DNA of 60,219 nucleotides, counting the filler, from Dugesia japonica (Eukaryota): NCBI GenBank assembly GCA_001938525.1. It is 6 parts of 6 records of this genome, joined end to end, with 100 filler letters (N's around TTAATTAATTAA, not from the genome) between each part and the next. Parts side by side here need not be neighbours in the genome. Positions count along the whole stretch, not along the records: positions 1 to 8,943 come from MQRL01629775.1; 5 more parts are not named here. One strand, 5' to 3'. A program made the position numbers and the translations under genes. Below, piece after piece: positions 1 to 29,565 of the stretch. Positions within the stretch are counted from its first letter, which is position 1; each line of letters starts with the position of its first letter. The notes beneath the pieces are model-generated. The model searched no databases. It was not told the DNA's origin and saw nothing but the letters and a program-made list of their open reading frames with translations.

Positions 1-63
1 ACATAAAAAGGCGTGAACGGTGATTGCGTCACTTCCGAGCTCGACCCTGCCTAACTATCTACT
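1..63 (-). mobile_element. Polinton/Maverick-type terminal inverted repeat end (right terminus of an element lying left of the window)
   Basis: The reverse complement reads AGTAGATAGTTAGG...CGGAAGTGACGCAATCACCGTTCACGCCTTTTTATGT and aligns without gaps to 59805-59867 (46/63 identical, 33/37 in the inner part). 5'-AG/AGT termini are typical of Polintons. Confidence 0.6.
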
Positions 64-483
64 AATATAGATGGAACAGAAACTCCTTAAGATGTTGAGA
101 TTTATTTAAATAAATTTGTTAGTCCTATTCCAACAAATAGTGATTATTGTAATATTTTAAAAAGAAAATTTAGAAGAGTAGATATTGCTGTAAAACCTAA
201 AAGAAAAAAAGAAACAATACTTAAATCAGAATCTAAATCTAATTTAAAACCTAAATCAGAATAAGAATCTAAATCAGAATATATGTCAGAAAAAACTAGT
301 GAATCAGAAGGAAATGCTCTCAATCCTTTGAGTTTATTTGAAAAGTTAACATTATTAATTTCAGCAGCAAAATCTGGGCATGATAATGTAAATGAAGAAA
401 TTAAAAAGACATGTAAAAAATTAAAGATGATGGGTTTAATATCTAACAAGATTTATAATAAATATAAAAAGAAATACTTATAA
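64..483 (+). pseudogene. Polinton protein with a C-terminal helical domain, 5'-truncated
   Basis: The frame of ORF 283-483 runs back to 64 with two stops. The C-terminus NPLSLFEKLTLLISAAKSGHDNVNEEI resembles the 'NP..L.ERL.LL.A...AG...V.NEI' motif I recall from invertebrate Polintons. Confidence 0.6.
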
Positions 484-500
484 TACTTATAAGAAATAAA

Positions 501-623
501 TATAAAAATAAATATGCCCACGAAGTGGGCTTTGTTAAATGATGGATGTTAAATGATGGATTTTAGATTTTAGATTTTAGGGTTTAACAAAACCCACTTC
601 GTGGGTTATATTTTTTATTTATA
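501..623. repeat. Intergenic inverted repeat (~40-bp arms), each arm containing a GAA-triloop mini-hairpin
   Basis: 501-539 matches the reverse complement of 583-623. Hairpins are GCCCAC-GAA-GTGGGC (516-530) and AACCCAC-TTC-GTGGGTT (591-607). Confidence 0.85.
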
Positions 624-625
624 AA

Positions 626-1405
626 ATGTCACATCAATTCTTAGTAGTTGGAAAAGAACAAGATTTAAGATTAGATTTAAGATTTCCTTTAGAATTAGAT
701 TCAGAATATGAACTTGGATTAATTGTTTTTTCATGTTACAATATTTTTTTTAACATAACAAATTTAAATAATAAATTTATTGTTAATATTAAAGAAGCTA
801 AAATTGAACCTGGATCATATGAAGTAAAAGTAATATCAGAGAAATTAAAAAAATATGAAATAGAAGTTATACCCGACACAGCAACAGCAAAATGTGAAAT
901 GAAAATAAAAAAACATTAACTTTTGATGATAAATCTTTCTTCCATAAAATTTTAGGTTTCGATGTAAAAACTTATCAACCAGGAGAATATTTCTCAGAAA
1001 ATAAAATTGACATTTCAAATATTAACACAATAAATATAACTTGTAATATTGTTAAAGGTAANNNNNNNNNNNNNNNNNNNNNNNNNNNNNNNNNNNNNNN
1101 NNNNNNNNNNNGACATTTCAAATATTAACACAATAAATATAACTTGTAATATTGTTAAAGGTAATTATGTAAAATCTCAAATAGGTGAAACCGAACAAAT
1201 AAATCTTTTATATTCATTTCCAATTAACACAGTTGGTTTAGGATATAAAATTCTTGAAAGACCAACATCAACAATTTATTCTAAAATTAACACAAATTAC
1301 ATTTCAAGTTTAAAATTTAATGTTGTAGATGAACATTTTAACACATTAGATTTTAACCAAGAAATAATTACAATTTTAGTTCATTTACGTAAGTATAGAT
1401 TATAA
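626..1405 (+). pseudogene. Polinton minor capsid protein (penton, single jelly-roll); one frameshift plus a gap-overlap artefact
   Basis: YELGLIVFSCYN..NI, IEPGSYEV, then after a frameshift in the A-run at ~907-913 TFDDKSFFHKILGF..YFSENKIDISNINTINITCNIVKG, then LYSFP..GYKILERP..IY..LKFNVVDE..LDFNQEIITILVHLR. 1009-1062 is duplicated at 1112-1163 across the N gap. Confidence 0.88.
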
Positions 1406-1408
1406 GAA

Positions 1409-1835
1409 ATGACATCTTACAATTTAATTGATTTCTTAAAAACATTTGGAATTAACACAACAAATTTTGATTTATATTCAATTGCAGACTTTTTACAAAT
1501 GGATTTAGAAATTTATATGAAAAGTGAAATACCTAAAAATTTAAAAGAAACGAATTACATTTTTAATTATCAAAATTCAAATCAAAAAAGAAACTCATTG
1601 GGTAGCATATTCTAACACATTTTATTTTGACTCTTTTGGTTTAAAACCTTTAGAAGGACTCGCTAGAGTCACCACGAAATATAATAAAATTCAAGTGCAA
1701 CATTTTGGTACTAAAATTTGTGGTATCTTGTGTATTTATTTTTTATATAAACTGGAGCGAAGTGATTTTGATGAAATAATTTTAGAGATGAAAAATTTAA
1801 CTAATTCCTTATTAGAAAAGGGATACAATGAATAA
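1409..1835 (+). pseudogene. Adenain-like (adenovirus C5 family) maturation cysteine protease; one frameshift
   Basis: After a frameshift in the A-run at ~1584-1589 the frame reads ETHWVAYSNTFYFDSFGLKP...IQVQHFGTKICGILCIYFL...GYNE*. His, Asp, Gln and Cys catalytic motifs are all present. The C-terminal half is missing from the ORF track. Confidence 0.9.
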
Positions 1836-2118
1836 GTTTGGAGAAAGTATATTTAATTTAAATACTTCGCAAATATTAAAAAGTGTTGATGCTAAAATTA
1901 GAATGTCAAATGCAGAAAATGAAAATAAATATGTAAATGAAACGGGTGACACAATTACATGTTTAAAAATAACAGAAGAGCCTAAAGATTTAAATGATGC
2001 AGTTAATTTAAAATATATAAAACTATTAGAAGACAAAATAGACAAACTTTTTAAAATTGATAATTTACAATCTAAGTTAAATGATAAAAACTGTAACAAA
2101 GAACATTTGATAAAATAA
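1828..2118 (+). CDS. Polinton fibre-like protein, N-terminal part
   Basis: Starts MNKFG and contains VNETGDTI and EPKDLNDAVNLKYI, a P..D.DAVN.KY motif of fibre or adhesin stalks. Coiled coil follows. A homologue sits in the same position after the protease at 18470. Confidence 0.55.
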   Translation: MNKFGESIFNLNTSQILKSVDAKIRMSNAENENKYVNETGDTITCLKITEEPKDLNDAVNLKYIKLLEDKIDKLFKIDNLQSKLNDKNCNKEHLIK

Positions 2119-2295
2119 ACTATAAAATTAAAAGATTAAGATTTGAAGTTTTTCCATTTAAAAGAAGTGATTTAACATTTCGCTAAAAAATTAGATTATG
2201 ATTTAAGTAAAAAAATTAAAAAAGAAATTCTAATATTAAATAATAAAATTAATAAATTAGATGATGATTTAGATAAGAAAACATTTGACCGGTAT

Positions 2296-3462
2296 GTGAC
2301 ACATATTGATAATATTAAATTCTATATAGAAAAATTTAAACCTATAATTTTAAAAATAGTTGAAGAAATAAAAATAATAAAACCAAAACTTCACAAAATA
2401 CAAATTGACAGAATTGAAGTTTTATTTAAAACTTTTAAAGAAACACTTTCAAATTCAGCACATGATAATTTAAGAAAATTACTTGATAATTATTTAGTAT
2501 ATATTTTTTTGTCAGGTGTTAATGCAATATTTTCAATTATCTGTTATGAAAAAAATCAAACTAATCCACATTTTCATATTAAAGATAAACATGTAAAGAA
2601 TTTTGATTTTATAAGTAAGGGTAAAATGAAAAATGATTATTTCTATCTTGAAGAACCTTTTGAAATATATTTAAATACAAACATTAATGAAAAACTTTGT
2701 ATATATATAGGAGGTTATTGTGAAATTAAAACATTTACATATGTCATTAGAATTAATAATACTGCAGCATCATTTGTTTATATGAAACCTAAAGATAATA
2801 CTTTTAAAATTTACAAAGAAAGCAGTGAAATTAATAAAGATACAAATATAAACTATATTGTAATAATTTTACCAAAAGATATTTATTTTAATCATGTAAT
2901 CATTGAAATATATAGATTTAAAATTTTAAATGAATTAATTAAAGAATTTGAAAAAATAAAACCTTACTTACATAAAATTTTTGTTGATAAAATTAGTGGT
3001 TTATTTAAAACTAATTCATTTAAAGAAATAAAAGGATTAATTGATAATTACTAACCTTATGATAATACACCTAGTAATGAAATATTTTCAATTACTTATA
3101 ATGTAAAAGATAATCTTCCTAAATTTTCTGTTATGGATAAATATGTTAATAATTTAGATTTTAAAAGAAAAGGTAAATTTATAGAATCTATTATTTTACA
3201 TACAACAAATATTAATAGAAAAATTAGTATAAATATAGATTGTTATTTTTATGAAATTGAAAAATTTACATACATCATTAGAATTAATCATTTTTCAGTA
3301 TCTTTTGTTTATATGAAACCTGAAAATAATACTATTAAAATTTATAGAGAAAGCACTGAAATTAGTAAAGATAAAAATATAAATTATATTGTAATAATTT
3401 TACCACCACTTGAACAACAAAATTATTTTGAAATGTTTAAGTGTAAAATTTTATTCTTATAA
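2296..3462 (+). pseudogene. Polinton accessory or receptor-binding-like protein with a tandemly duplicated domain; one in-frame stop at 3052-3054
   Basis: ORFs 2296-3054 and 3133-3462 share a frame, linked by *PYDNTPSNEIFSITYNVKDNLPKFSV. Internal repeat FTYVIRINNTAASFVYMKPKDNTFKIYKESSEINKDTNINYIVIILP versus FTYIIRINHFSVSFVYMKPENNTIKIYRESTEISKDKNINYIVIILP. Confidence 0.65.
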
Positions 3463-3463
3463 A

Positions 3464-4105
3464 ATGGAAGACAAAATATATCCTGGTTTACATGAAGATT
3501 ATACAATTTTAGATTTAAAAAATAAACTGTCGATGTCTAGAATTAGAGATTTTGAAAATGACCTTTTCTTTATAAAAGATAAAATTAAAAATTATAAAAA
3601 TATACATAAAAGATGGGAAATAATAGATTCAGGTATAAAATATACACAAATATTTGTTAGTGTTGAAATTGGAAATGGTGGTATAATTTTAATTACTCCA
3701 GATGGAGTTGCGCTTACAACAATTGGCTTACCAATAATTACTGGCGCAATTTCCGTGTTATCTGTAATTGGAACATTAAATTCTTCTTTAATAAGATCAA
3801 GAAAANAAAGATATGAAAAGTTAATAAGAAAACTTGAATGTGTTAAAAATAAATTATTTCTATTTCAACAGAAAGCCGATAATGATGAAATTTTAACTGA
3901 TGATGAAATTGCTATTAGTAAAAATATGGTAAATGAAGTTCATGAACTAATAACGGCAACAAAAAATGAAAAGTCTAAGAAGACAGATGAAAGTTTAAAA
4001 ATGTTAGTGCAAAATCAAACAAAGATTATTAATGAAATGAAATCGAAACTTAGGATCTCCTTAAACAAATTATCTAACATTTCATCATATTTCCTATTAA
4101 TGTAA
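3464..4105 (+). CDS. Polinton membrane protein (coiled coil, Gly-rich hydrophobic hairpin, coiled coil)
   Basis: ATG at 3464 gives MEDKIYPGLH. Hydrophobic stretch IFVSVEIGNGGIILITPDGVALTTIGLPIITGAISVLSVIG and C-terminal KADNDEILTDDE fit a layout common in invertebrate Polintons. Confidence 0.7.
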   Translation: MEDKIYPGLHEDYTILDLKNKLSMSRIRDFENDLFFIKDKIKNYKNIHKRWEIIDSGIKYTQIFVSVEIGNGGIILITPDGVALTTIGLPIITGAISVLSVIGTLNSSLIRSRKXRYEKLIRKLECVKNKLFLFQQKADNDEILTDDEIAISKNMVNEVHELITATKNEKSKKTDESLKMLVQNQTKIINEMKSKLRISLNKLSNISSYFLLM

Positions 4106-4824
4106 AAATAATTATATTTAGTTTTCCAGTGAAGATTTACCTCATAATCATATTCTAACTTATTACTGAAAATATTTGAAAACAATTCATGATAAACATT
4201 ATCTCTATCAGTTTTATTTAACTTAAAGAAAATGTAACAATTCGAATTATTCCTGATAGAGTTTTTATCTAAATGATAATATGTTTGTGAAATGTAAAGC
4301 ACATTACAATTTGAATGTCTACCTCTTGTAAAATCACTTTTTTGAATTTCTTGATTCTTTTCATTAACTACATCATCAAATATTATTAAGTTTTTCTTTT
4401 CCTTAGAAAGTTTGTCACAAGAAATTATTTCATTAGGTTTATTACTTAATGTTACAATTATAGATCTTGGTTTTCTAACTACTAATTTTTTCTGAAGATA
4501 ATATTGAACAACTTGATGTGGAGTAGTATATGTCTTTGGAACTATACTTTGTTTTTCAAACATTAAAATAATTTCTTCTTTAGTTAATCCATTTTCAAAA
4601 CCAATGTAAAGTAATTGTATTTCAAATTGATTAATTGTTGTTGAATAAAAAATAAAAACATTGTAATCTAAAAATTCTGGTGTTAATAACATTTTCATTA
4701 ATATAACATTTTTCCCACAACCTGAAGATCCAATCATTAAAAGTCCAAAATTATTAGGTAACACTTTATTATTAAAACTTGTAATATTATTATTCCAGAT
4801 CAGTGGAACTGTGGTTTCACTCAT
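4015..4824 (-). CDS. A32/FtsK-HerA-family genome packaging ATPase
   Basis: Walker A GSSGCGKN, Walker B LIIFDD, arginine finger FTRGRHSN, then YISQ and IRNN. Probable start MSETT at 4824. Confidence 0.93.
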   Translation of the reverse strand: MSETTVPLIWNNNITSFNNKVLPNNFGLLMIGSSGCGKNVILMKMLLTPEFLDYNVFIFYSTTINQFEIQLLYIGFENGLTKEEIILMFEKQSIVPKTYTTPHQVVQYYLQKKLVVRKPRSIIVTLSNKPNEIISCDKLSKEKKNLIIFDDVVNEKNQEIQKSDFTRGRHSNCNVLYISQTYYHLDKNSIRNNSNCYIFFKLNKTDRDNVYHELFSNIFSNKLEYDYEVNLHWKTKYNYFYINRKYDEMLDNLFKEILSFDFISLIIFV

Positions 4825-4846
4825 TTTTATATGACATATTTTAGCT

Positions 4847-5097
4847 TCAACCTTTTTTATATAATTGAAGCATTTCTTGAAGTCTAAATAAACATTTATC
4901 TGACCCATCACTCATTTTATTATATTTTAAATTTTCTATGTAAAATTTTACATCTAACAATTCTTTCTTCTTATCTATTAATTCTGTTAATTCTCTCTGG
5001 TAAAATTCACATTCATAATCATATTCACTTTTAAACATTTTAATCTTGTTTCTTCTATTTCTTTCGTAACATTTTTTAATTCTTTATCAACATCCAT
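4847..5097 (-). pseudogene. Small coiled-coil Polinton protein, frameshifted
   Basis: MDVDKELKNVTKEIEETRLK (ATG 5097) joins FKSEYDYECEFYQRELTELIDKKKELL with one frameshift near 5040. Confidence 0.45.
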
Positions 5098-5158
5098 TTT
5101 AGTATTTTGGATTTTAATCGGCGGAGCCGTGGTTTCACCGAACCATAACCTCCTTTTT

Positions 5159-6445
5159 TTATAAAGCTGATTTCTGAAGTTCGTTCGAATAAAATCTTCC
5201 CAATATTTTGTTACTGTTAAGATTTGAAATTTCAAATGTAAATGGGTTACGAAATATTTTAGTTATAATATAAATATTTTTTGACCATTTAAAAGTATAA
5301 CCTTTAGGAAATGTTTTTCCTATTTTAGTAATTCGTACACGATCTCCTATTTTAAACTTTAAGGTTTCATTGTTATCTTTTTTGTTTTTTATAATAATAT
5401 TTTCTGGATTTTTTGTTGCTTCTTGAGGTGTAATATTAATTGTTAAGTGTATTGTGTTATTGTAATCATTTACAATTTTCTCTAAAAGCTCTAAAGTAAT
5501 ATTTTGATTCCCAACGGTAGTAAAATGTTTAAAGAGCTTGTTTTTAAATGTTCTATTAAATCTTTCAATTACAACTGCTTTACCTTGATTTTCGGTTGAA
5601 TACATTTCAATGTTATTTTCTTCACAAAAATATTTAAAATGTTTATTGTAAAATTCTTTACCTTTATCAACCCATAATTTATTTGGAGTTCTAAAACTTT
5701 TAGTTAAAATGTTTTCAAAAGCTTTTGTTGTTGCTAGTCCAGTTTTACTTTTAGAAAGTTTGACAAATGCAAATCTTGTGTAAAGATCTATAACTGTTAA
5801 TATTACATTTTTACCTTTTCGTTCGATGCCTTGAAATATTAAATCTGCAGACTAAATATCATCTTTATCGTGTACAATTAATTTTCTAAAATGTTTTGGC
5901 TTTCTATAATCTTTATGAAGTTCTTTACTTTTAATTTCATTTGGATTAATTTCATCATCAGATTCTTCAATAATAATTTTACTTTTTCTATTTAAACTTT
6001 TACCAATCATTATTTTACCTTTCATAGCTAATTTTACAAGAGCCCTTTGAAATTTTTCTGTTGTAGTTGGATTTTCAATATTATTCAAATCATGTATTAA
6101 ATTTAAATCTGCGATGTGGCGATCTCTAATATCTTCTGAATTATATGTAATGTCGTGTTTTAAAGCTGCTGCATCAACTTGATTAATTGGTTCTTCTCCT
6201 AGATTTGACTCGAGATTTTCGTTTAATCTAATATCTAATCTAGTTCCAGGACCGGTATAATTATGACCAAACAAGTGTCTTTCACCTTCATATTTTTCTG
6301 TAGTAATTGGTTTTAATAATGTTGATATTACTTTTGAATTTTGTAAATCGCCTCTTTTATGTTTGCATGTTTTTAAATGTCTTGATTTATTTTTCTTTAA
6401 AATTATTTTACCACAATCTTCACACATAAAATTTTTAGATGACAT
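5159..6445 (-). pseudogene. C2H2 zinc finger / parvovirus-VP1-type phospholipase A2 / retroviral-type (rve) integrase fusion, 428 codons, one TAG at 5852-5854
   Basis: One frame: CEDCGKIILKKNKSRHLKTCKH; GHNYTGPGT...VDAAALKHDITY; ELHK...DDI*SADL (expected W-SADL), LTVIDLYTRF, LWVDKGKEFYN, IERFNRT, YNNTIH, FKIGDRVRI, GRFYSNELQK. Confidence 0.88.
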
Positions 6446-6449
6446 TTCT

Positions 6450-7772
6450 TTAACATTTAATATCAAGACCTCTAACATTTTCCACCGTAACAATTTTACT
6501 GTTTGCTAATTTCATTTCTACATGTTTTTCTTCGAGTATGCACCAATAAACAATTACATTAAAATCTGGATCCTTTTTAATTTTAAGTGTAACATCAACA
6601 TTATTAATATTCATTTTATCATCATGTGAGCTAGCATCGAAANAAAACAGTGGATAAAGATTTCCAAAATCTAAAAGTGATAATTGAGGTTCTGTAAAAA
6701 ATTCACGACAACATTTTACATATTCTAAATAAGGATGTGCCATCTCATTTCTTTCCATATCAAATTTACATTCATTGGCTGGATAATTACAATTGTTTAA
6801 TTGCAGTTGTATACCTTTAACATAATAATCTTTAGGAACTTTTTCTTTCTTTTCATTTTCAACATTTCTTGTAATTTTCTGGATAAATAAATTATTATTG
6901 ATTTGATGTAAGATTTCAATTTGTTTAAAACAAATTAAAATATATCTGGGTTGATATGCTAAGCTACCAATTTTAATTGAATAATATCCACCAGTTCCTA
7001 AGTTTGTTTTTCCTGTTATTCTATTTAAATAAGAAATTTTTATTGGTTTATTTGTTAGAATTCTTTATAACATAAACAATTCTGTTTTTGGTAATAATCT
7101 ATATTCTGGAATGTGTAATTCAAGTGTTAATAATTTTAAATTAGCCGTTGCGTCTTTTTCTTCATAAAATAATAGTTTATCTTCAATTTGACGATTACAT
7201 CTAATTTCTATCGATGTGTTATATAAAAGTCGATTATAATTTTGCATAAAACCTAGTAAGTTTTTTAATTGAAAAAATCCTTCAAATTTCTTTTTCTTAT
7301 AAAGTTTTTTTCTTGTATAATAACCAAGATTACATTCCCAATTTGTTACTTCAGTATCTCTATTATTTATATCGGGTATCCAACCTGACAATTGTCCATA
7401 TTCTTTTTTCCAAGTTTCAGTTGTAGTTATTAAATTTAACATTGTACTTATTACACCTGGATCATTTATTGTTTCGACTTCTGATGAACCAAGAAATAAT
7501 CTGATTGAATTAAACATACTTGGAAACCAATTATTTTCTAAAGTTATTTTTTTATCTTTCGATGCTTCTGGAATTGTAATCTCAATTGTAAAGTATAATA
7601 ATGAATTACAAATATCAAGTGGATTTTTAGATTGGAGAGATTTAAATACTATGTCACCACTTGCGTTTAGTTTGTTTATTGTTCTAGATGATGGAGAAAT
7701 TATTAATGTATAATTTTTAATTGCTGTATGTGAAAATTCAATATTATTATCTAAATCTATCACCGTGTTCAT
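6450..7772 (-). pseudogene. Polinton major capsid protein (double jelly-roll), 440 codons, one TAA at 7065-7067
   Basis: ORFs 7065-7772 and 6450-6758 are in frame. Motifs: FNSIRLFLGSSEVE..DPGVISTM, LKNLLGFMQNYNRLLYN, ELHIPEY, QPRYILICFK, LNNCNYP, YLEY, PLFxFDAS. Confidence 0.92.
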
Positions 7773-7833
7773 TTATTAGAGAAATTTTTTAGCGGCGTGT
7801 GTTTTTTTTATTTTGCGTTACTTTAAGCCTTAT

Positions 7834-7918
7834 ATTACATTACTATAAACCTTACTATAAACCTTACATTACGTTACATTACATTACTATAAACCTTACA
7901 TTACATTACGTTACATTG
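7834..7918. repeat. Short composite tandem repeat upstream of the major capsid gene
   Basis: ACTATAAACCTT occurs three times among ACATT/ACGTT pentamers. Confidence 0.7.
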
Positions 7919-8880
7919 CTGCATCGTGTATGGTTTTTTCATTCTTATAAAAAAATTATCATAATCAATTTCACCATTATCATTTATTTTTTTAATTGGT
8001 ACTTTAGTTGGTGCTTTGATTGGTGCTTTCTTTTCAAATCTATCAATTACAGAAATTAAACTTCCATGTGAATTTCTTTGTAAATTTCTAGAAGGATTCC
8101 ATGATCTAGTGTTATATTCAATGTTCCATTTCTTNNNNNNNNNNNNNNNNNNNNNNNNNNNNNNNNNNNNNNNTTTACAAAAATTTTGTATTGAGTTATT
8201 TTTAAAATTATATTCATTTAACATTTTATAGAAAACTGTATCCATTTTTATTGTTTTAATTTAGCATAGGCTCTTTTTACTCCAGTAATTTCTTCTTTAG
8301 CTGGTACACGAGTAAATTTTTCTGTTGAAAGCTTTTTAGTTTTTGCTCTTTCACTTAAAATAGCATAGCGTTTTGAAGTTAAATTTAATTTTTTATTTTT
8401 ATCTTCTGAATGAATTACTAAAATAACACCATCAACTTTTTGTGGCTTTAATTCTTGATTATGTTTTAATAAAACCTTATTGTGTTCATCTCTCTCTTTC
8501 TGCCATTCATATTGCTGTTCATTAATAATCTTTATATAAGCGTTTTTCTCTTCATTTAATGATTTAACCAATAAACCTCGACTTTCGCTTTGTACATATT
8601 TTGTAATAATTAAAGTCATTACCTTTTTAAATAAATTTTTATTTTCTTCTTCTAAATGTATTTCATCTAATTTTTCATATAATTTATAAAGATAATCCAA
8701 ATAACGTTTTGCAGTTTCATGTGAAAGTTCGCAATTTAAATATTCTTTTATTTCATCTAAATTTGACTCATCAAAACTCTCAAAACTCTTTATTGAATTT
8801 ACTAATGTACGTAAAGTTAACTCACTCACCACTTTTTCCTTTTCATCAACTTTTTTTCTGGAACAACTTTTTCTGTGCAC
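7901..8880 (-). CDS. Polinton accessory ORF(s) of unknown function (8248-8880 coiled coil; 7901-8245 spans a gap)
   Basis: Long charged helical ORFs co-oriented with the major capsid gene and only 2 nt apart. No recognised motif. Confidence 0.5.
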
Positions 8881-8987
8881 TCATTTTCTAAAGAATTAAT
8901 TTAAACCTTTTTTTATTATTCCTCTTAAATGGTCATTTTAAATNNNNNNNNNNNNNNNNNNNNNNNNNNNNNNNNNNNNNNNNNNNN

Positions 8988-8999
8988 TTAATTAATTAA
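8988..8999. other. Artificial scaffold-joining linker TTAATTAATTAA (also 17967-17978, 29408-29419, 38341-38352, 48308-48319)
   Basis: Identical six-frame-stop 12-mer flanked by N runs on both sides, five times. Confidence 0.97.
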
Positions 9000-9809
9000 N
9001 NNNNNNNNNNNNNNNNNNNNNNNNNNNNNNNNNNNNNNNNNNNTCGTGTATGAAATGTTTATATACTTCACTCTCATTCTGTTTGATATGTTCTTTGATT
9101 CTGGTTTTGATTGTTCTGAAGGTTTCCCCTATGTATGACTATATGCATATGATACAATTAATTTCATAAGTTACATTGTTTTAATTACATATGTACCGGT
9201 TAGAAATTAGTTAAGTAGCACAGCGTTTTCTTAAGAAAATGAAAATTTATAAATAAATGTTTTCACTTACTTCTGTTTACCATGGCATATTTTTCAAAAA
9301 GAGAATGTTTTTACTTTTTCTACTTATTCCAAGAATGAAAGAAATGCAACTAATTCTATAGGATAATAAATTAACCAAATATTTAAAAATAAAAAAATTT
9401 ATATTATAATATTAAATATCAATCAAACATTAAATTATATTAGCTTAAATTATTGTTATGAACTTTTAATATATTATTATTTTAATAAGATTCGTGTTAT
9501 GTTAAATAATATTCAAACAAATCAAATTTTACAATGAATTAATTAAGTTAACTTTAAAAAATTTGAATAAGCATATTAAAACATAAAACTTTTGTCTGTC
9601 AAAATCTCAAGGCAATCAGTGGAAAACTTTCGGATTTCATCGAATTTGAACAAACGTACCCTTATATTTTTATTTATATAGATAACATATTCATTTCTCA
9701 TTTACATAAAAATTTTTATTTACATTTTCATTTTACATGATATTTAATTTTTTTGAGCTTTTGTGGTTTCAAATTCATATTTTTATTTTATTTTCTTTTC
9801 TCAAGTACT

Positions 9810-18022: not shown

Positions 18023-18472
18023 CATTTGGTATTAATACTAAAACAAATTTTGATTTAAAAGAATATTCTATTCAATTAAATTTACCTGTTAAAATAGTAA
18101 TGAATGATGAGCTTTATAAATTAAAGACAACTAAGAAACACAATGGGCTTTCTAAGCCCCAAAGTCCTGAAGGACTTAACGTAATTATTAATTATCAAAA
18201 CTGAAATAAAAACGGTTCACATTTGGTTTCTTTTAAAGACAGGCTAATATATTTTGATTCATACGAAATTAAACCAACAGATGAAGTTGAAGCTTTTTAC
18301 ATAAAGATTATTTTTCTAACAAATTACAAGTACAACCTAATGATACAAATATATGTGGTATATTATGTCTTTATGTTTATATATGTTATAAAATTCAGAT
18401 ACTTATTTTGATAAAATTATTGATTCTATTTATACAGATTTACAAACTCTTTTAAATAAATTAATAAAAATG
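18023..18472 (+). pseudogene. Second, diverged Polinton adenain protease
   Basis: FGINTKTNFDL...IINYQN*NKNGSHLVSF...YFDSY..KP...QVQPNDTNICGILCL, collinear with 1409-1835. Confidence 0.85.
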
Positions 18473-19400
18473 AGCACTTTTATACCTACAATTAATGACA
18501 TAAACAAAACTAATAATAAAATTACTAGTGAGATAAATATTTCTAATGAACAATTTAAAACACCAATAAATAATCTTACAGTAAATGAATCGGGTGATAA
18601 AATAGAAAAAACTAGAAGTTATTCAAGAACTTAAAAATGATAATGATGTTGTAAATAATAAATATTTGCAGAAATATACCGATTAAATGAAAAAGGATTT
18701 TCTTCGGGATACAGATCATAAAACAAAATTTAGAATATAAAGATTGAGACTAAAATATCAAAATTTAAAACTAAATTAGATAAAAGAATTAAAAATGAGA
18801 TAGAAAAAGAAATGAAATCTTTAAAAGATTTAGTGAAACAAGTTGATGAAAATATAAAAAGTGTAAACGATAATAAAATTAATCAGCTTACATTTAATTC
18901 TTTTAAACTGGAGCAGGCTGATAAATTTGATAATATTGATTCGCGAGTTACTTTCTTTAATAATTTATATATTAATAATTTTAATAAAGATTTAATAGGT
19001 ATTCATGGAATAAGACAATATAAAAAATTATATAATTCAAAAATCAGATTTTGGTTTAGATAAAATGAATCATCATTTTAATTATGAAGACTTAAGTAAT
19101 AATGGATTAACTATAAAAAGCAAATCTGATTTAAGATTGAAAAATAAGATAGATGGTAGTACTCCTTTCAATTGGTGAAATAAATTTTTTTATTTGAATA
19201 AAGATAATAAATCTATTTCTAAATTTGAATTAAAAAATACTTTGTTTTTATTATTTTTTTAATAGAAATAATTGTTTAGATTTAAAAGGTGCGTTTATTA
19301 AAGAGGATTAATTGAACAGAAATATAATAGGAGAATATAAAGAATATACAAATTACGTACAATTGAATAAAGAAGAATTATATAATGATAAAAAAAGTTA
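18470..19400 (+). pseudogene. Second Polinton fibre-like gene, decayed
   Basis: VNESGDKI...ELKNDNDVVNNKYL matches VNETGDTI...PKDLNDAVNLKYI of 1828-2118, with the same gene order after the protease. Confidence 0.6.
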
Positions 19401-19613
19401 ATTTAACTTACAATGATAATTATCCCTTTTTTTCTAAGATTTTTGGTTGTTGTTGGACAAAAACTTGGTCTATATATTGTTTATAGGACTTATGGGGTTG
19501 GATAGATAAATTTTGCTAGAAGTGTGGTAGCACATCAGATCAGTCGTATTACTTATCGTGGGGGTGTTTTTTGGGAGGCTGTACGTTTGTATGTGGTTGA
19601 TGGACATTGTTGG

Positions 19614-20445
19614 TTGATGTGTTCTTGGTAAGGTAATGTTATGGAAAGGGCTTTGAATGTCAAATGTGCTTTGAATTTTTATTTTAAAGGCTTGAATTTG
19701 ATTGGTTAATTTTTGTAAGTAATGTAAGTGTGTTAAATAAATTTTTCTGCAGGGCGACAAAGGTATGTGTGGAAAGACAATTAATTATCAGATTTTTTAT
19801 GATTTATTTGAAATTTTTTGGGAAGGAGTGTATGACGTCAAATTCGTTTGAAATCTTTATTTTGGTTTAAAATGCTGTATTTTGCTTAAAATGATGAATT
19901 TATTGAAAGTAATGGTATTTTTGTGAAATTATGTATTTTTGAATATTTTTTGAGTATTTAAATGAGTATGATAAATATCAAGTCTGCTCAATCTCATACA
20001 TAAATATAAAGTCTTAAAAAATTAAATTTTGCATGCAAAAATAAATTTTTGAATTTCCCGCTAAAAAAATAAATATTAAGACTCCGCTTTCCTGTTCAAA
20101 AATATTCAAAAAATATTCAAAAACACAACATTTTTACAAAAATACCATTACTTTCATTAAATTCATCATTTTAAGCAAAATACAGCATTTTTAACCAAAA
20201 TAAAGATTTCAAACGAATTTGACGTCATACACTCCCTCCCGAAAAATTTCAAATAAATCATAAAAAATCTGATAATTAATTGTCTTTCAACACATACCTT
20301 TGTCGCCCTGCCGAAAATTTTATTTAACACTTATACTACTTACAAAAATTAACCAATCAAATTCAAGACCTTAAAAATAAAAAATCAAAGCACATTCGAG
20401 ATTCAAAATCTTCTCAATCACATTGCCTCTTAAACAATACATCAA
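19614..20445. mobile_element. Foldback/MITE-like element with ~345-bp inverted arms
   Basis: 19614-19960 is the reverse complement of ~20099-20445 (for example CAGGGCGACAAAGGTATGTG and TATGACGTCAAATTCGTTTGAAATC). The right arm stops at the Gypsy remnant. Confidence 0.85.
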
Positions 20446-22600
20446 AAGTTGCTGGGGCTGATGGCAACGTGAACGGCATTCAGTTATAGCAAAACTGGAC
20501 CTTTTTTGTCAAAAATGCTGTTTTCAATTGTGACGATTCATCCAAGAATACTTGATAATAAGCTTGTCCTAAATCTAATGATGAAAAAATGGAAGCTCCT
20601 GGAAAAGTATCGAATATGGTTTGCGGATCTGCCATGGGAAACTAAATTTTTCTGTAACCTCGTTAATCTTCCTATAGTCCTGGCACATCCTAATCGTTCT
20701 GTCATTCTTTCCCACAACTACGAGTAGCGAGTTCCATGGACTATGTCATTTCCTAATTAAAACCATTTTCAACAACTTCGAGATTATATCATCCACTTTA
20801 AATTTCGTTTGCATCGCCATTCCTCTTGTATTTTGACTTATTGGAGTCCCTACTGTTTTTATACAATGTGTTACCAGATTTTTACATCCTAAATCGAACT
20901 CCAGTGCAATAAAAATAGAACCATATTGCAATACTAATTCTGTGAACTTTGATAAATTAATGAATCCAAAAATATTTAAAGCCTTTTGTCCTCTTTCTTC
21001 ATTCCAATATGTCAAACCTAAGAATTCATTGATACTCTCGATAAAAGTCTCAATCCAAAAGATGAAATAATATTCCTACCACCAACAAAACTCGGATTTA
21101 TATCTTTAACTACCGTAATCTGGATATTCTTAATGATTCCATTCCAACTAACCAAAGCTTTTAACTCTCCTAAACATGCTATTGCTGTAGCACCAAATAC
21201 TCCTCTAAGAGATATGTCTGATTACCATAAGATAGGATTTCCGCACATTTTCCACTTACCTTCTGACATCACCGTTACTGCTGCGCCCGTAATCCATAAC
21301 ATCTCTATCATCTTTCCACAGCATTCAACCAAACTTCACCATCTACCATCTGCCTTTTTGAACCTCAACATTTTGATTTCCTGCATCTGCAACATTTAAT
21401 TCAATGACTCCACAGTGGAAATGTATGCCATGGAGCGTCTGTCGTTTAAATTATGATCTTGTCTATTTGTGTTTTGATCATATATAATAGCTCCAGTCTC
21501 TTTCTCTTCAAAATCTCTGGTTTCATCATGTTTCAAATCGCCTTAACTATATACTTGATCGTCTGAATTATTTTCTTCATGAATACACTGAGCCTTTCTT
21601 GTGTTATTTCGCAATAAGATAAAATTATTAAAATAAATATTGTCCTTAACACATATCAAACAACACTTATTCAATGGACAGTTGTTTCTGACATGGCTCA
21701 CCACAACAATAACATTCCCCTGGTTGAAATCATCATAATTCGGGCTCATGTAATTCTTTCGCTCTGTTATATACTCTTCTTGCTATATGCTTTATGGAAA
21801 CCATAGGTCTTTGGGGCTTATCGTTTTCGTTCGACTTCTCCACAGGTTGTCTTCTCTCTGAAACCTGCAGTACTTTATTTGAGTTGGAATATCGTTTCCC
21901 TTGATTATTTACCAATGGTTTGATTACCAGTGGTATTTTGTGTCTAATTGATCTTTTAATACCTGTTACTGCTTCGTATGTCGGCATATGTTCTCTTTTG
22001 CTATCTTTAATTGCAATAACGTCTGACCTTTCTTCAATACACATTGAAGTTTCGAAATTTATAGTCAATTTTTCAATTTCTTCCAAAGACATATCTGGAT
22101 TCATGGCGATTGACTCCTTTACTTCCCCGAAGAACATTCGTTTTGAAATTATATCCTTCACGATCATGTCTTCTGTTTGCTTCACCGATAAAACTTCTCT
22201 TATTAACTTACTCACTCTAGTAGCAAAATTCTCATACCTGTCATTTGATCGTTGATTAACTTAACTTAGCTCAAATCATCGATCTTTTGCAAAGATGTTT
22301 TTGACTTGATGTACTTTGAACTATATCAATTTCTTGTATCTTCATCTGACGGAATCTTTATTTTTTCTTTAAAGGCTATGCATAATTCTTTTGCGTCACT
22401 GTGCAGCAATAAATCGAATGCTGTAGATAAATTTAAAGAGTTAATGGTTACAAAATCTTCAATTGATTGTGGTCACTCTTTCGCATCTTCTTTCTTGTAG
22501 CAAAAAACTTTTTTATTATTGGACAATTTTCATCCGCTGCTTACTCTGTGAAAACTGGGATTTCGGCGTGATCGCCAGTTACAATACCATTTTGACACAT
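20446..22600 (-). mobile_element. Degenerate Ty3/Gypsy retrotransposon (PBS, gag, protease, N-terminal RT)
   Basis: PBS TGGCGATCACGCC at 22577-22565, gag knuckle CYCCGEP/HVRNNCP, protease MLWITGAAVT (decayed DTGA), RT IRMCQDYRKIN and MPFTLPSAPATF, truncated at ~20446. Confidence 0.88.
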
Positions 22601-22679
22601 TAAATAATTATGCGCCTTTCAAATATTTATTATAAAAGTATTACTAAATATTTAAACAGCAAATCATCTTATTGTTACT

Positions 22680-23767
22680 ATAATTATCTATCATTATGAT
22701 AGGTTAGATCAATTAACTTTGGCTCCAGAACATAAATGTTCACCTGGGTCAAACATTAAGAAATTGTTAATGACACATTAACCAAAACGACATTTTATCA
22801 TATATTGGCAATTGTTAGAATTATATATAAATCTCGGGGCTCGTGTAACTGCAGTTCAAAGAATAATTTAGTTCAAAAAAATGGAAATATTTGCCAATTA
22901 TACTCATGCAAATTCAGCGAGAAGAGCAAAGTCTAAGTCCAAATATGAAAATAATTTCTACAAACTATTAAATAATACGTTATATATTAAGACTGTGGAG
23001 AATTTAAAGAAACGTATGGATCTCGGGCTATGTAACAATGAGAAGAAATTGGTAACTTAAACTAGCAAATTTATATTTAAGCAAATAATGGACATTTTAG
23101 AAGGACTCAAGACTGTATTATTAAAGAAAGATACAATATGTTTCGATAAACCGAGTTATATTAGCCAGGTGATTCTAGATTTGAGTGCGAATGTATAGAC
23201 TCCAATATGAGGAACTTGAAAAATATCGAAATGAATTTGGTTGCAAAATTTGATATAATTGCTGGAGATACGGAGAGATTTTTCTTATCTTGTAACGAAG
23301 TAGATAAAAACCAACTCTTATCCCAAATAAAATCTGATGGTCTTCTGGATACAAGGAATTATCTAACAGGTCATCTACTCTAGTCCAGCAATGTGGTTAA
23401 TAAAATTGAATTGTTTAAAGACGAAGGAGAAGGTGAAAGATATACTGAATGGGTATTCCTAAGGCCAAAATGTTATATTTTGAAGAAGGAAAATTCTATT
23501 ACGATAATGAAAGCAAAAGGAATCAGTTTAAAATAAACAAATATCAATCATCAAAACTATTTAAATACATACAATAAAGATGAATACGAAGAACAACAAC
23601 AAATCAAGGTTATGCAGACTAGCTTTTCGTCGATAAATCATCAGGTTTACACAATGGAGAGTGACAAACGCGTATTGCCATACCTACATGATAAGCGCTT
23701 TTGGAATGAAAGAAATACTAGTATGGACTATGTTTATCATAAAATTAATAATAAAACTAATAATTAA
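22680..23767 (+). pseudogene. Polinton protein-primed family B DNA polymerase (pPolB), C-terminal part
   Basis: LTLAPEH, FYKLLNNTLYIKTVENLKKR, FDKPSYISQVILDLS, AGDTERFF (decayed DTDS), FKDEGEG..EWVFLRPKCY, MKAKG, LHDKRF..YHKI. Several stops and frameshifts; absent from the ORF track. Confidence 0.9.
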
Positions 23768-24789
23768 GACACTGGAAAATGAAAGCTTGTTATGAATTAA
23801 GACAAACTTTGACAATAAGTAAGGATATATTTAATCATTTTTATTAAAAAGTAGTGATTTTCTTGAATGGTAGTAAGTAGAGAGATGGTAACGCATGTAA
23901 ACACCCCTTTACCACCGGGCAAAGTGTTTACTAATTTATTGTTCTAGACTTTGGACCCGTTTACGAATTTTAGGGTTTGATTTTTGACTTCTACGTTATT
24001 TTTGAAATATATTGTTGAATTCTTTACAATTTTTAAAATTTGTTGTAGACTTCTGTGTAACTTAGAAAGTATTTCACTGATCTTTATTTAGTTTATAAGA
24101 ACGATTAATGATCTCTATGTAATTTTTGATATATATTAACGGCATAAATGTAATACAATTAAAATATCTAAGTAAAAGAACAAACAAAAGACAATTATGA
24201 AAAGAATGTATTTAAAACACACACGTTCTTTATTACACACTTGAAATTTCAATCAATATATCTTTATCAGTCATTTCATCATCAATCACATCCTTATTTA
24301 TAGGTGTATCAGACATTACTTTGTCGATATTGTCATCTTATGGAGGCATATCAACTATTTCCTCATCAATAATGACATCATTTATAAGTGTGTCAATCAT
24401 TTTCGCATCAATAAAGACATCATTTAGTTGAGTATCGCTCATTTTCTTTTCTGTAGATGCATCTATTTCAATTATTTCTACATTATTTTCTTTATCTACT
24501 ATTGAATAGTTATTAGATTAATATTAGTTATTATTATTACCTTGATCCGATGAAGTTATATGTTCAATCATATCGTCTATAATTTTATACAAATGCATTA
24601 CTAATCAGTTGCTAAGTTCTTTTACAGAATTATTTAAAATTTTAAATTTTCTAGATGTTTTGGTAAGAAATCTTTACGTTAAGGGTAATCTTGATTTAAT
24701 AACATCATCAAATCCCAACTGATTTCATTACATTTTTCATATAATTCTTAAAATCTGGATCATAATTCATGTTATTTATTGGNNNNGTT

Positions 24790-25502
24790 GGATGGTTGGT
24801 GAAAATCTAATGAAATCCAAGAAAGGTTATGGAACTTAGTATATTTATTAAACTTGTATATAAGTTTATCAGTGGTTTTGACAAGATGGACAAACTGGTT
24901 ACAAGCAGTAATTTACTACTGTAACAACCTCCCCGCGATTAAGAACATTGTATCAAACAAAGAAGATGATGGTGTGCTTGTTAACAAGGCAAAATCAGCA
25001 TTGACAGAACCCGATCTAATGAAGGAATTGCTGGTCGTAAAAGAGTGCTATGAAGTATTATTATATACATTAGAAAATCTAGAAGGAGACCGATATAATA
25101 TTTCAATGGCCTACGAGGAAATCAACAGAATAAATTTAAAACATTATCCTCTTGAATTAAAATATTATATTTCCCAATGTCTAGCTGACAACGATTTTAG
25201 ATCTATTTAGATCGACAAAACGTAAATATGTCACCAACTATTTATTCCTTTTTAAGAAACTGTCCCCCTACATCGATTGTAGTAGAAAAGAGTTTCTCAA
25301 TGCAGAAGAAAATATTGGCCGTAGGCAGAAATTTTGATCCTAAAAAATTGGCCAATTACATGTGTGTTACAATCAAAAAGTGGAAGATGCCAATTTGCAA
25401 GATAAACAGGAAAATGATTGTTTGTAATTAAAAAAATAAATGCTATTTTTTGGATTTTAAATGCTATTTTTATGAAAATAAAGGCTATAAAAAACCACTC
25501 TA
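24790..25502 (+). mobile_element. hAT-superfamily transposon 3' fragment (transposase C-terminus and end)
   Basis: VLTRWTNWLQAVIYY, PPTSIVVEKSFSMQKKIL..RNF (hAT dimerisation-type motif), subterminal AAATGCTATTTT repeats ending CCACTCTA. Confidence 0.75.
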
Positions 25503-25779
25503 GTTATATATCACATAAAAAATTAATATACACACGTATAAATACCACATACATACATAATAAATCAATACACACATAATGAACTTATGCATACACAAAT
25601 ACATGTTTAAATGGTATGAACCAGACATATACAACACAAATGCAAGTCAAAAAGACATTGCAACACGAGTGCAACTATAACAAAGAGCATGAATCATACT
25701 TGTACAAGTTAAACAAAGAAAATACAACACAAATGTAAGTATACATAGGTATGATTGCTAATCAAAATTAAGGTGCTAT

Positions 25780-27640
25780 GTGATTTGTAGAGTTTTGTAG
25801 GGTTTATAAGGTAACTGTAATGTTTCATATGGTGATTTTATGGTAATTATATGATTTTATGTTATTATATTAGAAATTATGTGGATATTATAGAGTACGT
25901 ATTTATTATAAGGTTATTATATGGTTTTAACTGATTTATTAAGGTTTTATTTGTTAATTATATGATTTTATATGATAAGTATATGGTTTTATATGGTCAT
26001 TATATATGTTTTATAAGGTAATGATAGGTTTGTATTGAATAATTATATTGTTTTATAGGATTTTATATGTTTTTATTATGCTTTTATAGTGTTTCATATA
26101 ATAATTATATGGTAACATTATGGTAATTATAGGATTTTAATAGAATTTTATATGATTGATTTGGTTTTTTAAAGGTACGATTTTATTAGATTAATAAGGT
26201 AATCATAAGGTTCCATATGGTCGTATAGTGTTTTTATAGAGTTCTATATGATTTCTATATGATTTTTATAGGGTAACTATAGGCTTATTATAGCATTTAT
26301 TATTAAGGTACTTTTAGAGTTATTATAAGGTTTTATAAGATAAGTATATGGTTATTATAAAGTTTTATATGATCTTATAATGTTTTTTTTACCAGGTTTT
26401 TATTAAAATTATAAGGTTTATATGTTATTGTTGTGTTTTGTTGGATTTTATATGATCTTATAGATTATAATTTTAGAAATTGCATAGATGTCTATATAAT
26501 TTTTCGAACAATTGCATGTAAGTCTATCAAATTATAAAATAGTAGAATACGCCATCCGAGGTTTAACTATAATAACATAATACTATGTATTCATTTAATA
26601 CGCACATTATATAAATTACATAAAATAATGCTATGTAATACACACAAAATAAAAAATAAAGTCACTTAAATACACAGAATAAACCTAATAAATATAAATA
26701 AACATATACAATAAACCCAAAAAAGGCATATAATATACATAAAAAAAACCAATAGAGCCATATAATATTAAATCCAATAATACATACAATAAACAAAATT
26801 AACTAAAAGAGTCATTAAATGCACATAAATAACTCAATTGAACTAGTTAAAATCACGTCATAAACTCCATACTTACCGTTAAATGCGTATAATAAACCCA
26901 ATATATTCATATAATACACAAAATAAACTCGATATAGTTGTATAATATACATACCAATGCCCCAATAAAGTCACTTAAATACACACACAAATAACCTAAT
27001 ATAGTCTTATACGCATGAAACCAACGTGTCTTATACATAATAAACCAATGAGTCTTATACACTAAATACAATATATTTATATAATACATGTATTATACAC
27101 AATAGAACCGTATAATACATATAATAAATCATATAAAGTCAATAATTAAACACAATAAAACCAATAGGGTAACAAAATACAAACAATAAACCCAATAGAC
27201 TTATAATACACACTATAAACGTAATAGAGTTATATGATACACACTATAAACTCATTAAAGTCATACAATACATATAATAAACCATATAGTCACTAAATAC
27301 ACACATGCAATAAAATCAATAAAAGTATATACATAGTAAACCCAATTGAGTTTACAATAGTTCCTATAGAGTAATAACTACATAACTACACTCAATATAG
27401 ACATATAACACACTCAATATAGACATATAATAAATACTATAAACCTAATAATTTCATATAACACACTCGCAATGAACCTAATATTAACATTAAATACACA
27501 CCAATACCTCAATTGGACTAGTTAAAAGATACAATAAACGCCATAAATACAGTTAAATTCATACAATAGACCTATTTTGTACAATTAAATACCCTCAAAA
27601 ACTCAATAGAGCTACTTATTACACATAATACATAAAAAAT
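25780..27640. repeat. Degenerate minisatellite arrays in opposite orientation (foldback-like)
   Basis: G/T-rich TATATGGTTTTATA-like units at 25780-26460 switch to A/C-rich ATAAACCCAATAGA/TACACAC units at 26560-27640. Confidence 0.6.
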
Positions 27641-27984
27641 ATTCATAAAAATATACTCATTCATGTAAAATAATATTAAAGTCGACTTGGAGAATAATAA
27701 AATTTTATACATATTAATCCATCTGTGCATCATAAATACATTTCAGGCGATGAAAATGTAAAATGAACAAAGAACTTAACAACTGATTAGTAATGCATTT
27801 GTATAAAATTATAGACGATATGATTGAACATATAACTTCATCGGATCAAGGTAATAATAATAACTAATATTAATCTAATAACTATTTAATAGTAGATGAT
27901 GTTCAAGAAAATGATGTAGAAATAATTGAAATAGATGCATCGACAAAATAAGAGATTAGCGATACTCAGCCTGATCCAATTACT

Positions 27985-28365
27985 TACATTCCTAATAGGT
28001 TAAATATAACTCTTAGTAATAATTCTGATGTAATTCTTTGTGATAGGTTACCTCGAAATTTAGAGAACTTAGAGAATCTTTAATGATGTGCCTAATGAAA
28101 AGAATCAACAAATACAAATATACATTTCTCAAACAAACTTTGAGTTGGATTAAAATTCAATAATTAATAATAGCAACTGCGTTATATCTTTAAAATTGGG
28201 TAAGCGAGACAATCCACAAGAATAATTTTTACCATGATGTATTGAGTAACATTTTTACCAACAACATTTTTGAATATGTTTACGATGTAGAAGTTGATTG
28301 AAAAACAAAATATAATTACTTTTATCTAGACAGTAAAAATGCAACATTAATGACAAGTTTATTTG
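27985..28365 (+). pseudogene. Second Polinton packaging ATPase, C-terminal half
   Basis: ITLSNNSDVILCDRL..IFNDVPNEKNQQIQ/IYISQTNFELD*NSIINNSNCV..HDVLSNIF..*KTKYNYFYL aligns with the scaffold 1 ATPase (TLSNKPNEIISCDKL..IFDDVVNEKNQEIQ..YISQ..NSIRNNSNC..WKTKYNYFYI). Confidence 0.85.
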
Positions 28366-28819
28366 GGTGAGTTACATAAATTGATAAAATTAATATATCA
28401 ATCAGAGAAAGTTTTGGCAATTTGCGTAATTTGAAAATACTTTTTCTTTTCCAAATTATAAAATAGAAGATTTTATTCTTTGTCTTTTTGATTGGTGGAG
28501 CTCCAAATAACCTCAAGATTATTGTATAATCACTTTAACCTTGAAGCCTATATATTATTTCTAATCCATATGGATTGTATAGGACACCACAAGGATCGTA
28601 AACTAATTTTAGAGTAATATTAATCTTTTTTGTTATATTCAAGTGAAGATATTCTGGCAAATTGACTAAAAATTTTCAATGATAGATTCTTCTAGCATAA
28701 AATATCTAACACAATTCTGCAATCTATTAATTCCCAAAACATCAGCATTAATGGTATAGTATTCATGTTTTTAACTTGGAAAAATTATTCTTTTTTTTTC
28801 GCTTTCCTTAAAATTTTCG

Positions 28820-29200
28820 CTTAGTAAAATAAAAGGTTTATTAGAGTTGATTACTTCTAGCAAGTGTAAAAGCATTATTATCAATGGAAAGAATTATTGG
28901 ATTGGAAAAAAGCCAAGGAAGCTATTAAAGTAGAAATCTCTAAAAAGGGATCTGCATCACCCCCATTGGCCTTAATCCCAGGAAATTATTTCTGCGTTAT
29001 CTGAAGCAGCTGGAAGTAGTTCACGAGATCCTATAAAGAAAGGGAAAAAATTGAATTACTTAATCAAAAAAAATCAACAGAGTTACTTCAAGGAAATGGA
29101 ATCCACGGAAGTTATTTATATCTAAATCCATATCAAGGAAGTGCTATTCGTAAACATTTAAAGAATCTAGTATTTTAGCTAAATTCAATGGAAATTTTCA
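28820..29200 (+). pseudogene. Possible Polinton virion core or membrane-active protein remnant
   Basis: KGLLELIT..MERIIGLEKAKEAIKVEISKKGSASPPLALIP..IISALSEAAG..LYLNPYQGSAI resembles the 'KGG.LPL..LIP' and 'GLYL.PY.G.G' motifs I recall from Polinton small structural proteins. Confidence 0.45.
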
Positions 29201-29565
29201 CAAATTGGTACCGACACAGTAAATGTGTCACTCAATATTCATAAAAATATTCATTTGCAATTATCGTTCTATTATTCTTGAATTTTTAGATGAATTGCTG
29301 AGAATTATCGTTATGTTTGAAAGCAATTATAAAATACCAGCAAGTTAAACGAAATAATTGAAANNNNNNNNNNNNNNNNNNNNNNNNNNNNNNNNNNNNN
29401 NNNNNNNTTAATTAATTAANNNNNNNNNNNNNNNNNNNNNNNNNNNNNNNNNNNNNNNNNNNNATTATTATTATTATTGATTATTATTATTGATTATTAT
29501 TATTGATTATTATTATTGATTATTGATTATTATTATTGTCATTAATATTTGTTGTTATTATTAAG

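Follow-up and report, generated by a model that had tools for sequence, protein, structure and literature searches.

Alpha adintoviruses and group-2 Maverick-Polintons have been described with a hexon, a penton, adenain, an FtsK ATPase, an rve integrase and a parvovirus-type PLA2, where PLA2 forms PLA2X together with a pX-like domain and a chromodomain is part of the integrase (Starrett 2021, PMC8502044; bioRxiv 10.64898/2026.06.19.733378). The supplements of a 2024 preprint by Buck et al. (PMC11071296) contain Adintovirus nemertoderma6405 (Adinto6405), an element of 13,891 bp in the Alpha/Alpha class, whose kit as read by eye comprises PolB, adenain, Cah, ATPase, P5669, penton, PLA2-integrase, hexon and Slatt; the PLA2-integrase fusion was annotated by the authors in this element and in Adinto15303 and is thus already known. 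The locus analysed here occupies positions 64-8943 of a window of 60,219 nucleotides from Dugesia japonica (the window being the whole stretch of DNA that was analysed). It codes for a double-jelly-roll capsid, a penton, an adenain protease, an A32-type ATPase and an rve integrase and shares these components, together with the parvovirus-type PLA2, with Alpha/group-2 elements. In contrast to their descriptions, its PLA2 runs into the integrase, and it has neither a PLA2X nor a chromodomain. The piece is very probably a chromosomal Polinton copy of group 2 (Alpha-type adintovirus), truncated and decaying, from the clade whose integrase bears an N-terminal zinc finger and a PLA2 and lacks a chromodomain. 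Its Alpha/group-2 assignment relies on the parvovirus-type PLA2 typical of such elements, with the named Alpha references compared by description.

The coding signal of the piece lies above chance, with eight stretches of 190 aa or more free of stops (the longest 298) compared with none in 200 base shuffles (longest 131), and the gene positions and junctions (1405/1409, 1828/1835, 3462/3464 and 6450/6445) given in an earlier note on this DNA were correct. The same note had argued that this gene set defines Polintons and adintoviruses. The identity stands, as profiles and folds back all five core genes; the argument was overstated, as the definition also includes pPolB and TIRs, both absent from the piece. 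A profile search found no PolB within 1-8943, a piece truncated on either side, and a search of the piece for TIRs and a target-site duplication found none, neither end of the element being present there. Likewise, no pX-like core gene was found in the piece, and a pX/Macc profile gave no match anywhere in the window. The piece ends in an assembly linker (8944-9043, N-TTAATTAATTAA-N), and because this linker recurs five times in the window, position 8943 is an assembly end and not the end of the element. At the other side, a GC-rich stretch (1-63, 49% GC compared with 23% in the element) abuts the truncated first gene and is similar to a repeat in another piece (89% over 37 nt with 59831-59867, with further likeness by eye); on its left the element would border a repeat that is also seen elsewhere in the window. 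Since the piece lacks PolB, TIRs and a target-site duplication, we infer integration from this one junction and from decay.

The surroundings of the piece also bear on its origin. It could derive from a co-sequenced organism (a symbiont, food, a protist or a fungus) or its virus and not from the main germ line: only the linker joins it to its neighbours, its closest homologs often lie on short contigs, and fungi and protists have related elements. However, the GC content of the element piece (23%) is near that of the other pieces (24-31%), and these contain both the shared repeat and a related copy. This second copy, the only other one within the window, lies in an unlinked piece, is far more decayed than 64-8943 and includes a PolB remnant (22695-23701) beside a related ATPase remnant. 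Moreover, DNA runs under one species label contain words of the sequence (0.25-0.34 of words found) in three studies, or in two if the best-matching run is set aside as a possible source; half of the words were reached by none of the 12 matching runs. The runs listed include no RNA run, which speaks neither for nor against. A co-sequenced source is therefore decidedly unlikely.

In this Polinton copy, one gene on the minus strand (5159-6445) encodes a fusion of a zinc finger, a parvovirus-type PLA2 and an rve integrase, interrupted by one TAG at 5852. The fusion partner, which the earlier note had left unnamed, is by profile match a PLA2 domain (PF08398, E 1e-09); the rve match (E 3e-07, 30.9 bits) is slightly below the cut-off of 32.6. 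The PLA2 Ca-loop and His-Asp motifs and the integrase D-D-E motif are retained, and the best match to the fusion protein reaches 55% over 99%. Judged by the domain content of its homologs, the fusion is real, as both PF08398 and PF00665 are carried by 80 of the 120 homologs listed and by 53 of the top 60 (counted by hand). On a quick tree, the window integrase falls in a set of 30 rows, 29 of them fused proteins (support 95), and has a long end branch (0.87). No Chromo match was obtained in the window integrase, and matches in two relatives (L001 and L003) were weak. The TAG stands shortly ahead of the first catalytic Asp of the integrase. Programmed readthrough between PLA2 and integrase was ruled out as its explanation, as its position is within the conserved beginning of the integrase, beyond the junction.

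The remaining core genes could be assigned by profile and fold. The double-jelly-roll major capsid protein (6450-7772, minus strand) is interrupted by one TAA at 7065 and includes a single undetermined base; it matches PF21738 above the cut-off, has full-length homologs at 41-54%, is 18-23% identical to the capsids of six related loci, and shares its fold with iridovirus, mavirus and PBCV-1 capsids. Scans of viral contigs with query P0001 and with the capsid alignment found no relatives. The minor capsid gene (626-1405, plus strand) contains one frame break near 903-913 and an assembly gap of 50 N (1062-1111) with an identical 53-nt sequence on either side. Its two halves compare with a family alignment (A3) at HH probabilities of 96% and 98%, and the modelled structure of a relative from A3 resembles the pentons of mavirus and adenovirus (E 4e-10); through this modelled fold of a relative, the gene is identified as encoding a single-jelly-roll penton. 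The adenain-type cysteine protease (1409-1835, plus strand) has His, Asp, Gln and Cys motifs and one frame break near 1584-1590. It was matched in a profile search (E 2e-15), its profile matches the adenovirus proteinase 1avp (E 2.4e-05), and 8 of 12 protease family members show a weak Peptidase_C5 match. PDB sequence searches with the PLA2, the capsid and the protease piece yielded no significant match. The A32/FtsK-type packaging ATPase (4015-4830, minus strand; Pox_A32, E 2.7e-08; best match at 60% identity) is open throughout. Its Walker A motif reads GK-N, and eight of 35 parsed homologs share the N, the seven closest among them; a lesion was therefore ruled out in favour of a clade trait.

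The accessory genes are less securely named. The first frame (64-483, plus strand), which lacks its 5′ half and has two internal stops (88 and 262), corresponds to the 3′ portion of a conserved Polinton gene, P5669/Adintoc3-like by eye; a profile of 16 relatives' ORFs matches 265-480 (E 7.6e-07) with the profile end only. A fibre/Cah-like frame (1828-3462, plus strand) harbours an internal duplication of ~350 nt (2520-2874 and 3075-3405, 75%) and has no Pfam or Atlas match. Its putative fibre label comes from motif likeness and gene position, by eye, and it may comprise more than one gene. The following open frame (3464-4105, plus strand), which overlaps the 3′ end of the ATPase gene, encodes a SLATT-like two-helix membrane protein (profile of six relatives' ORFs, E 7.7e-15; the name 'Slatt' is by eye). 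On the minus strand are a small coiled-coil-like coding stretch in two frames (4847-5097), with no Pfam match above chance, an ORF across a 39-N gap (7901-8260), with no Pfam match, and a member of an unnamed helical family of ~210 aa (8248-8880), which ends sooner than its 20 homologs (24-39% identity). No Pfam family is common to the members of this family, and a tyrosine recombinase was rejected, with a weak SAM-like match in 1 of 16 members and Atlas scores <0.8. Short tandem repeats (7818-7917) lie upstream of the capsid gene.

The lesions reported earlier for the core genes, one TAA in the capsid, one TAG in the integrase fusion, one A-run frameshift each in penton and protease and none in the ATPase, were all recovered. 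The duplicated-domain gene 1828-3462 had been credited with one TAA and has four internal stops (2116, 2137, 2173 and 3052), so that about one lesion per gene describes the core and the accessory genes are more broken. As read in the assembly letters, eight internal stops fall in about 2100 codons (in 64-483, 1828-3462, capsid and integrase), which corresponds to about 1-2% substitutions. Of 146 capsid columns that are otherwise invariant, 33 are altered, compared with 2-14% in six intact relatives, suggesting somewhat more decay. The earlier description as fairly young therefore fits the stop count and less well the capsid columns; from these figures the present copy appears to have drifted by roughly 1-2%, perhaps somewhat more, and would make neither capsid nor integrase. 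Most lesions might instead be sequencing or assembly errors in an intact or active element, as both core frame breaks and also undetermined bases lie in A-runs and the penton crosses a gap with duplicated flanks. However, homopolymer errors do not explain the eight internal stops, and the altered capsid columns and the truncation of the first gene at a foreign repeat also make this very unlikely. Nor do the surviving frames point to a host function: domestication of the ATPase, the SLATT-like gene or the PLA2 half that the stop separates off could be read from the two open frames and from the 197-aa ZnF-PLA2 frame left by the TAG with its catalytic motifs intact, but at a density of eight stops per roughly 2100 codons, chance would leave one or two frames of 200-270 codons open, and we consider it extremely improbable that the host has kept them.

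In the ancestor of this decaying copy, capsid and penton would have built an icosahedral shell, the ATPase would have packaged linear DNA and adenain would have matured the particle. The ZnF-PLA2-integrase protein would most likely have been packaged as a core precursor; on entry, PLA2 could have breached the endosomal membrane, by analogy with parvovirus VP1, and the integrase could have come in with the genome and inserted it. Gly-Gly and Gly-x-Gly motifs around PLA2 are candidate adenain cuts: among 50 fused proteins GG occurs upstream in 38 and GxG after it in 44 (counts with no background control), and both are degenerate in the window's own protein. Packaging, cleavage and PLA2 activity of the fusion protein are what we infer.

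In a sister clade outside the window, the frame changes between PLA2 and integrase at an A-run in their junction, with 35 frameshifts at this site, 15 elsewhere and 3.3 expected. This shift may be recoding or a mutation hotspot. Canonical -1 frameshifting was rejected: folding of 21 of 24 relatives' junctions revealed no downstream structure (z -0.3 to +1.0 for nine of the -1 class, -2.1 for one +1 case), and the three states (-1, +1 and in-frame) are scattered across a quick tree, on which the -1 label shows no clustering (97 of 500 shuffles gave a value as low). If the shift is recoding, integrases that are at present classed as broken would in many cases work, and counts of active elements would therefore change. 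It is possible, if on balance doubtful, that group-2 Polintons run a gag-pol-like scheme in which a ZnF-PLA2 core and integrase arise from one unit, in frame in the clade of this element and by slippage on a conserved A-run in the sister clade, with little integrase per PLA2 and the product packaged, cut by adenain and delivered with the genome. In the literature searched, the fusion appears solely as the name of a gene in supplements, with no text on junction or packaging; the fusion bears on the question of how Polintons bring integrase to incoming DNA.

As a genomic fossil the locus is ordinary, decayed Polintons being widespread. Its PLA2 has the Ca-binding loop and His-Asp motif of the parvovirus VP1-unique PLA2 and of the Spodoptera Maverick CAP (PMC5803895), which lie on a capsid protein or in a separate gene, whereas here the domain lies on the integrase. 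Mavirus-type virophages resemble it in capsid and penton folds, rve integrase and protease, but sequence identity is only about 10%, and its sequence relatives are Polinton-type elements. The C-terminal integrase chromodomain given as a feature of Adintoviridae (Buck 2024) is missing here and, by eye, from Adinto6405, which also deviates from the PLA2X arrangement and is still filed as Alpha/Alpha. That definition further asks for a hexon that is reciprocally recognisable by BLASTP to the reference and for a PolB with an OTU-like domain. The earlier note had counted a match to an already described family against its reading; novelty is indeed lowered, because the published Adinto6405 has nearly the same kit, fusion included, and also agrees by eye in P5669 adjoining penton and adenain adjoining Cah. 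In contrast to Adinto6405, the piece is broken, differs in gene order and is without PolB, Macc, Cytocx and Vilthree, and it has an N-terminal CxxC finger on the fusion, a GK-N Walker A and the unnamed 210-aa gene. What is new here is thus an extra member of a little-described clade with a fused PLA2-integrase, no chromodomain, a GK-N ATPase and this 210-aa gene.

The first piece of the window (1-8943, MQRL01629775.1) carries a real, decayed and truncated group-2 Polinton/Alpha-type adintovirus. Its coding signal is far above chance, with eight stretches of 190 aa or more free of stops, compared to none in 200 base shuffles. The Polinton/adintovirus gene set proposed in the earlier note was borne out, as profile or fold matches back the identities of capsid, penton, protease, ATPase and integrase. 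The capsid matches PF21738 above the cut-off and has 12 homologues, 11 of which cover 97-99% at 41-54% identity; its model, with X placed at the break (pLDDT 81), matches the double-jelly-roll capsids of iridovirus, mavirus and PBCV-1. Both halves of the penton match an alignment of seven relatives (HH 96% and 98%), and a model of the first of these relatives, tied to the window copy by the HH comparison, matches mavirus and adenovirus pentons. The catalytic motifs of the protease align with its family, whose profile matches adenovirus proteinase (E 2.4e-05). The ATPase shows a Pox_A32 match and 44 homologues with up to ~60% identity. Eight of the 35 homologues that were parsed (nine were unparsed), including the seven closest, carry Asn for Thr/Ser after the Walker A lysine (GK-N). 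Since the seven closest share this Asn, a lesion was ruled out, and GK-N is a trait of a packaging ATPase clade comprising window 4015-4830 and the homologues P0193-P0199 and P0201. Three families are matched by the accessory genes: one P5669/Adintoc3-like, one SLATT-like and one of 210 aa without a name. The last, a helical family of ~210 aa represented at 8248-8880, has 20 homologues; no Pfam family was found for it, and it is absent from all 84 related loci. Searches of the first piece for PolB, pX-like and Cytocx-like genes came up empty.

On recheck, the ORF, stop and junction coordinates proved correct, as did the open ATPase frame and the single break per gene: a TAA at 7065 in the capsid, a TAG at 5852 in the integrase fusion, and A-run frame breaks in penton and protease. 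The duplicated-domain frame at 1828-3462, credited with one TAA in the earlier note, instead contains four internal stops, and frame 64-483 contains two; the accessory frames are more broken than the core genes. The penton is furthermore interrupted by 50 N flanked by a 53-nt duplicate, which is an assembly artefact. Of all substitutions in these codons, some 6-7% create a stop, so that the 4-8 stops in 2097 codons correspond to ~1-2% change. The capsid, however, deviates at 33 of the 146 columns that are invariant across six intact relatives (the relatives themselves at 1.7-13.7%), in a test that dropped three of ten rows as partial or near-duplicate and is biased against a row without a close sister. 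Therefore, the copy, previously described as fairly young, is young but clearly decayed.

Between the window's pieces, ~9-12 kb each, stands an N-TTAATTAATTAA-N linker (five occurrences). The element occupies 1-8943, with a GC content of 23% from 64 onward; its piece ends on the right at the linker and on the left in a 63-nt GC-rich stretch, which abuts a gene lacking its 5' half. A GC-rich repeat common to 1-63 and 59800-59867 (last piece) contains the motif GTCACTTCCG, presumably ETS/CRE-like, and may be either a host repeat or a leftover of the element's end. DNA runs from three studies under one species label contain 0.25-0.34 of the element's words, which may reflect partial presence or diverged sister copies, and none of 12 runs contains at least half. 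A second Polinton copy, in a much more advanced state of decay, lies in the piece 18023-29363, with remnants of protease (18025-18377), PolB (22695-23701; PF03175, E 0.003) and ATPase (27988-28364). Although unlinked to the first piece, it attests PolB in a related lineage of the same assembly. The ORFs between its remnants (18025-28364), which we take from their motifs to be Gypsy-like, gave no match in a Pfam search. A separate rve integrase remnant at 38448-38726 (E 1e-12) probably derived from an LTR retrotransposon. Together with microsatellites, this remnant is consistent with a eukaryotic genome rich in repeats, presumably that of an animal. Repeats in other pieces comprise a pair of 222-nt inverted repeats, an inverted array built from 15-nt units, and two tandem arrays, both degenerate (19730-20330, 53796-55125, 42910-43641, 26600-27660).

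The gene at 5159-6445 encodes a CxxC finger, then a parvovirus-type PLA2 and then an rve integrase; no chromodomain was found in it. By hand count, both Pfam families (PLA2 and rve) occur in 80 of the 120 homologues listed and in 53 of the top 60, in a search that admits only proteins of similar length and thus favours fused forms. A quick tree of 67 rows places the window integrase, itself on a long branch, together with 29 fused proteins (support 95).

The PLA2/integrase junction is spanned by 65 of the 84 related loci: 23 are in frame, 22 have the integrase at -1, 14 at +1 and six carry a stop. Among 83 loci (L059 dropped), 35 frameshifts fall at the junction and 15 over the remaining gene, compared to 3.3 expected at the junction if uniform. 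Most lie on a run of 6-8 A directly after Gly-x-Gly-Leu, as in the sister-clade junctions L001:10417-10445, L027:8808-8830, L030:3392-3471, L024:1277-1303, L047:1496-1513 and others. Every one of the long loci in which PolB or the capsid is open (L001, L027, L030, L003) is at -1, and of the 16 shifted loci whose integrase frame is whole (tabulated without L003 and L027), 13 have no Met ahead of the first catalytic Asp. The shift in the sister clade may reflect recoding, but -1, +1 and in-frame states are intermixed among close relatives, downstream structure is absent at the examined junctions, and few assembly prefixes account for many loci. A-runs are, moreover, hotspots of mutation and of sequencing error, and the shift may be such a hotspot. 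In the window element, PLA2 and integrase are joined in frame, and the longest A-run at the junction is five. L003:1-15597 appears to be a complete Polinton of 15.6 kb, bounded by inverted ends and with an F5/8 type C domain on one gene; its PLA2 and integrase genes overlap but are read in different frames, the integrase starting from a Met of its own. The viral contigs L002:9872-10471, L004 and L005 carry ZnF/PLA2 genes without an integrase behind.

The morphogenetic module in the first piece is thus complete and is accompanied by PLA2-integrase; its capsid, penton and protease genes are broken, as is the integrase. Going by the established roles of these families, the ancestor's proteins would have served assembly, packaging, maturation and integration. 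The fused integrase may also have entered the virion along with PLA2. Such packaging of the fusion is somewhat probable, because parvoviruses deploy PLA2 from the virion and the adintovirus PLA2 is treated as one of the virion genes. GG occurs upstream of PLA2 in 38 of 50 fused proteins and GxG downstream in 44 of 50 (counts without background control), motifs which resemble the consensus of adenain sites. Adenain cleavage at these candidate sites is suggested tentatively, and a gag-pol-like scheme for PLA2-integrase seems rather unlikely.

The available portions of PMC3671162, PMC5803895, PMC11131425 and PMC4405056 give definitions and leave the fusion unmentioned; Repbase and subscription literature lay outside the scope of this survey. 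Starrett 2021 (PMC8502044), in the part available, reports PLA2X and not a PLA2-integrase fusion. The fusion is already known as an annotation, since the consulted supplements of Buck 2024 (PMC11071296) label PLA2-integrase genes in the published adintoviruses Adinto6405 and Adinto15303. Compared by eye from these supplements, Adinto6405 has nearly the same gene kit as the window element and additionally carries PolB.
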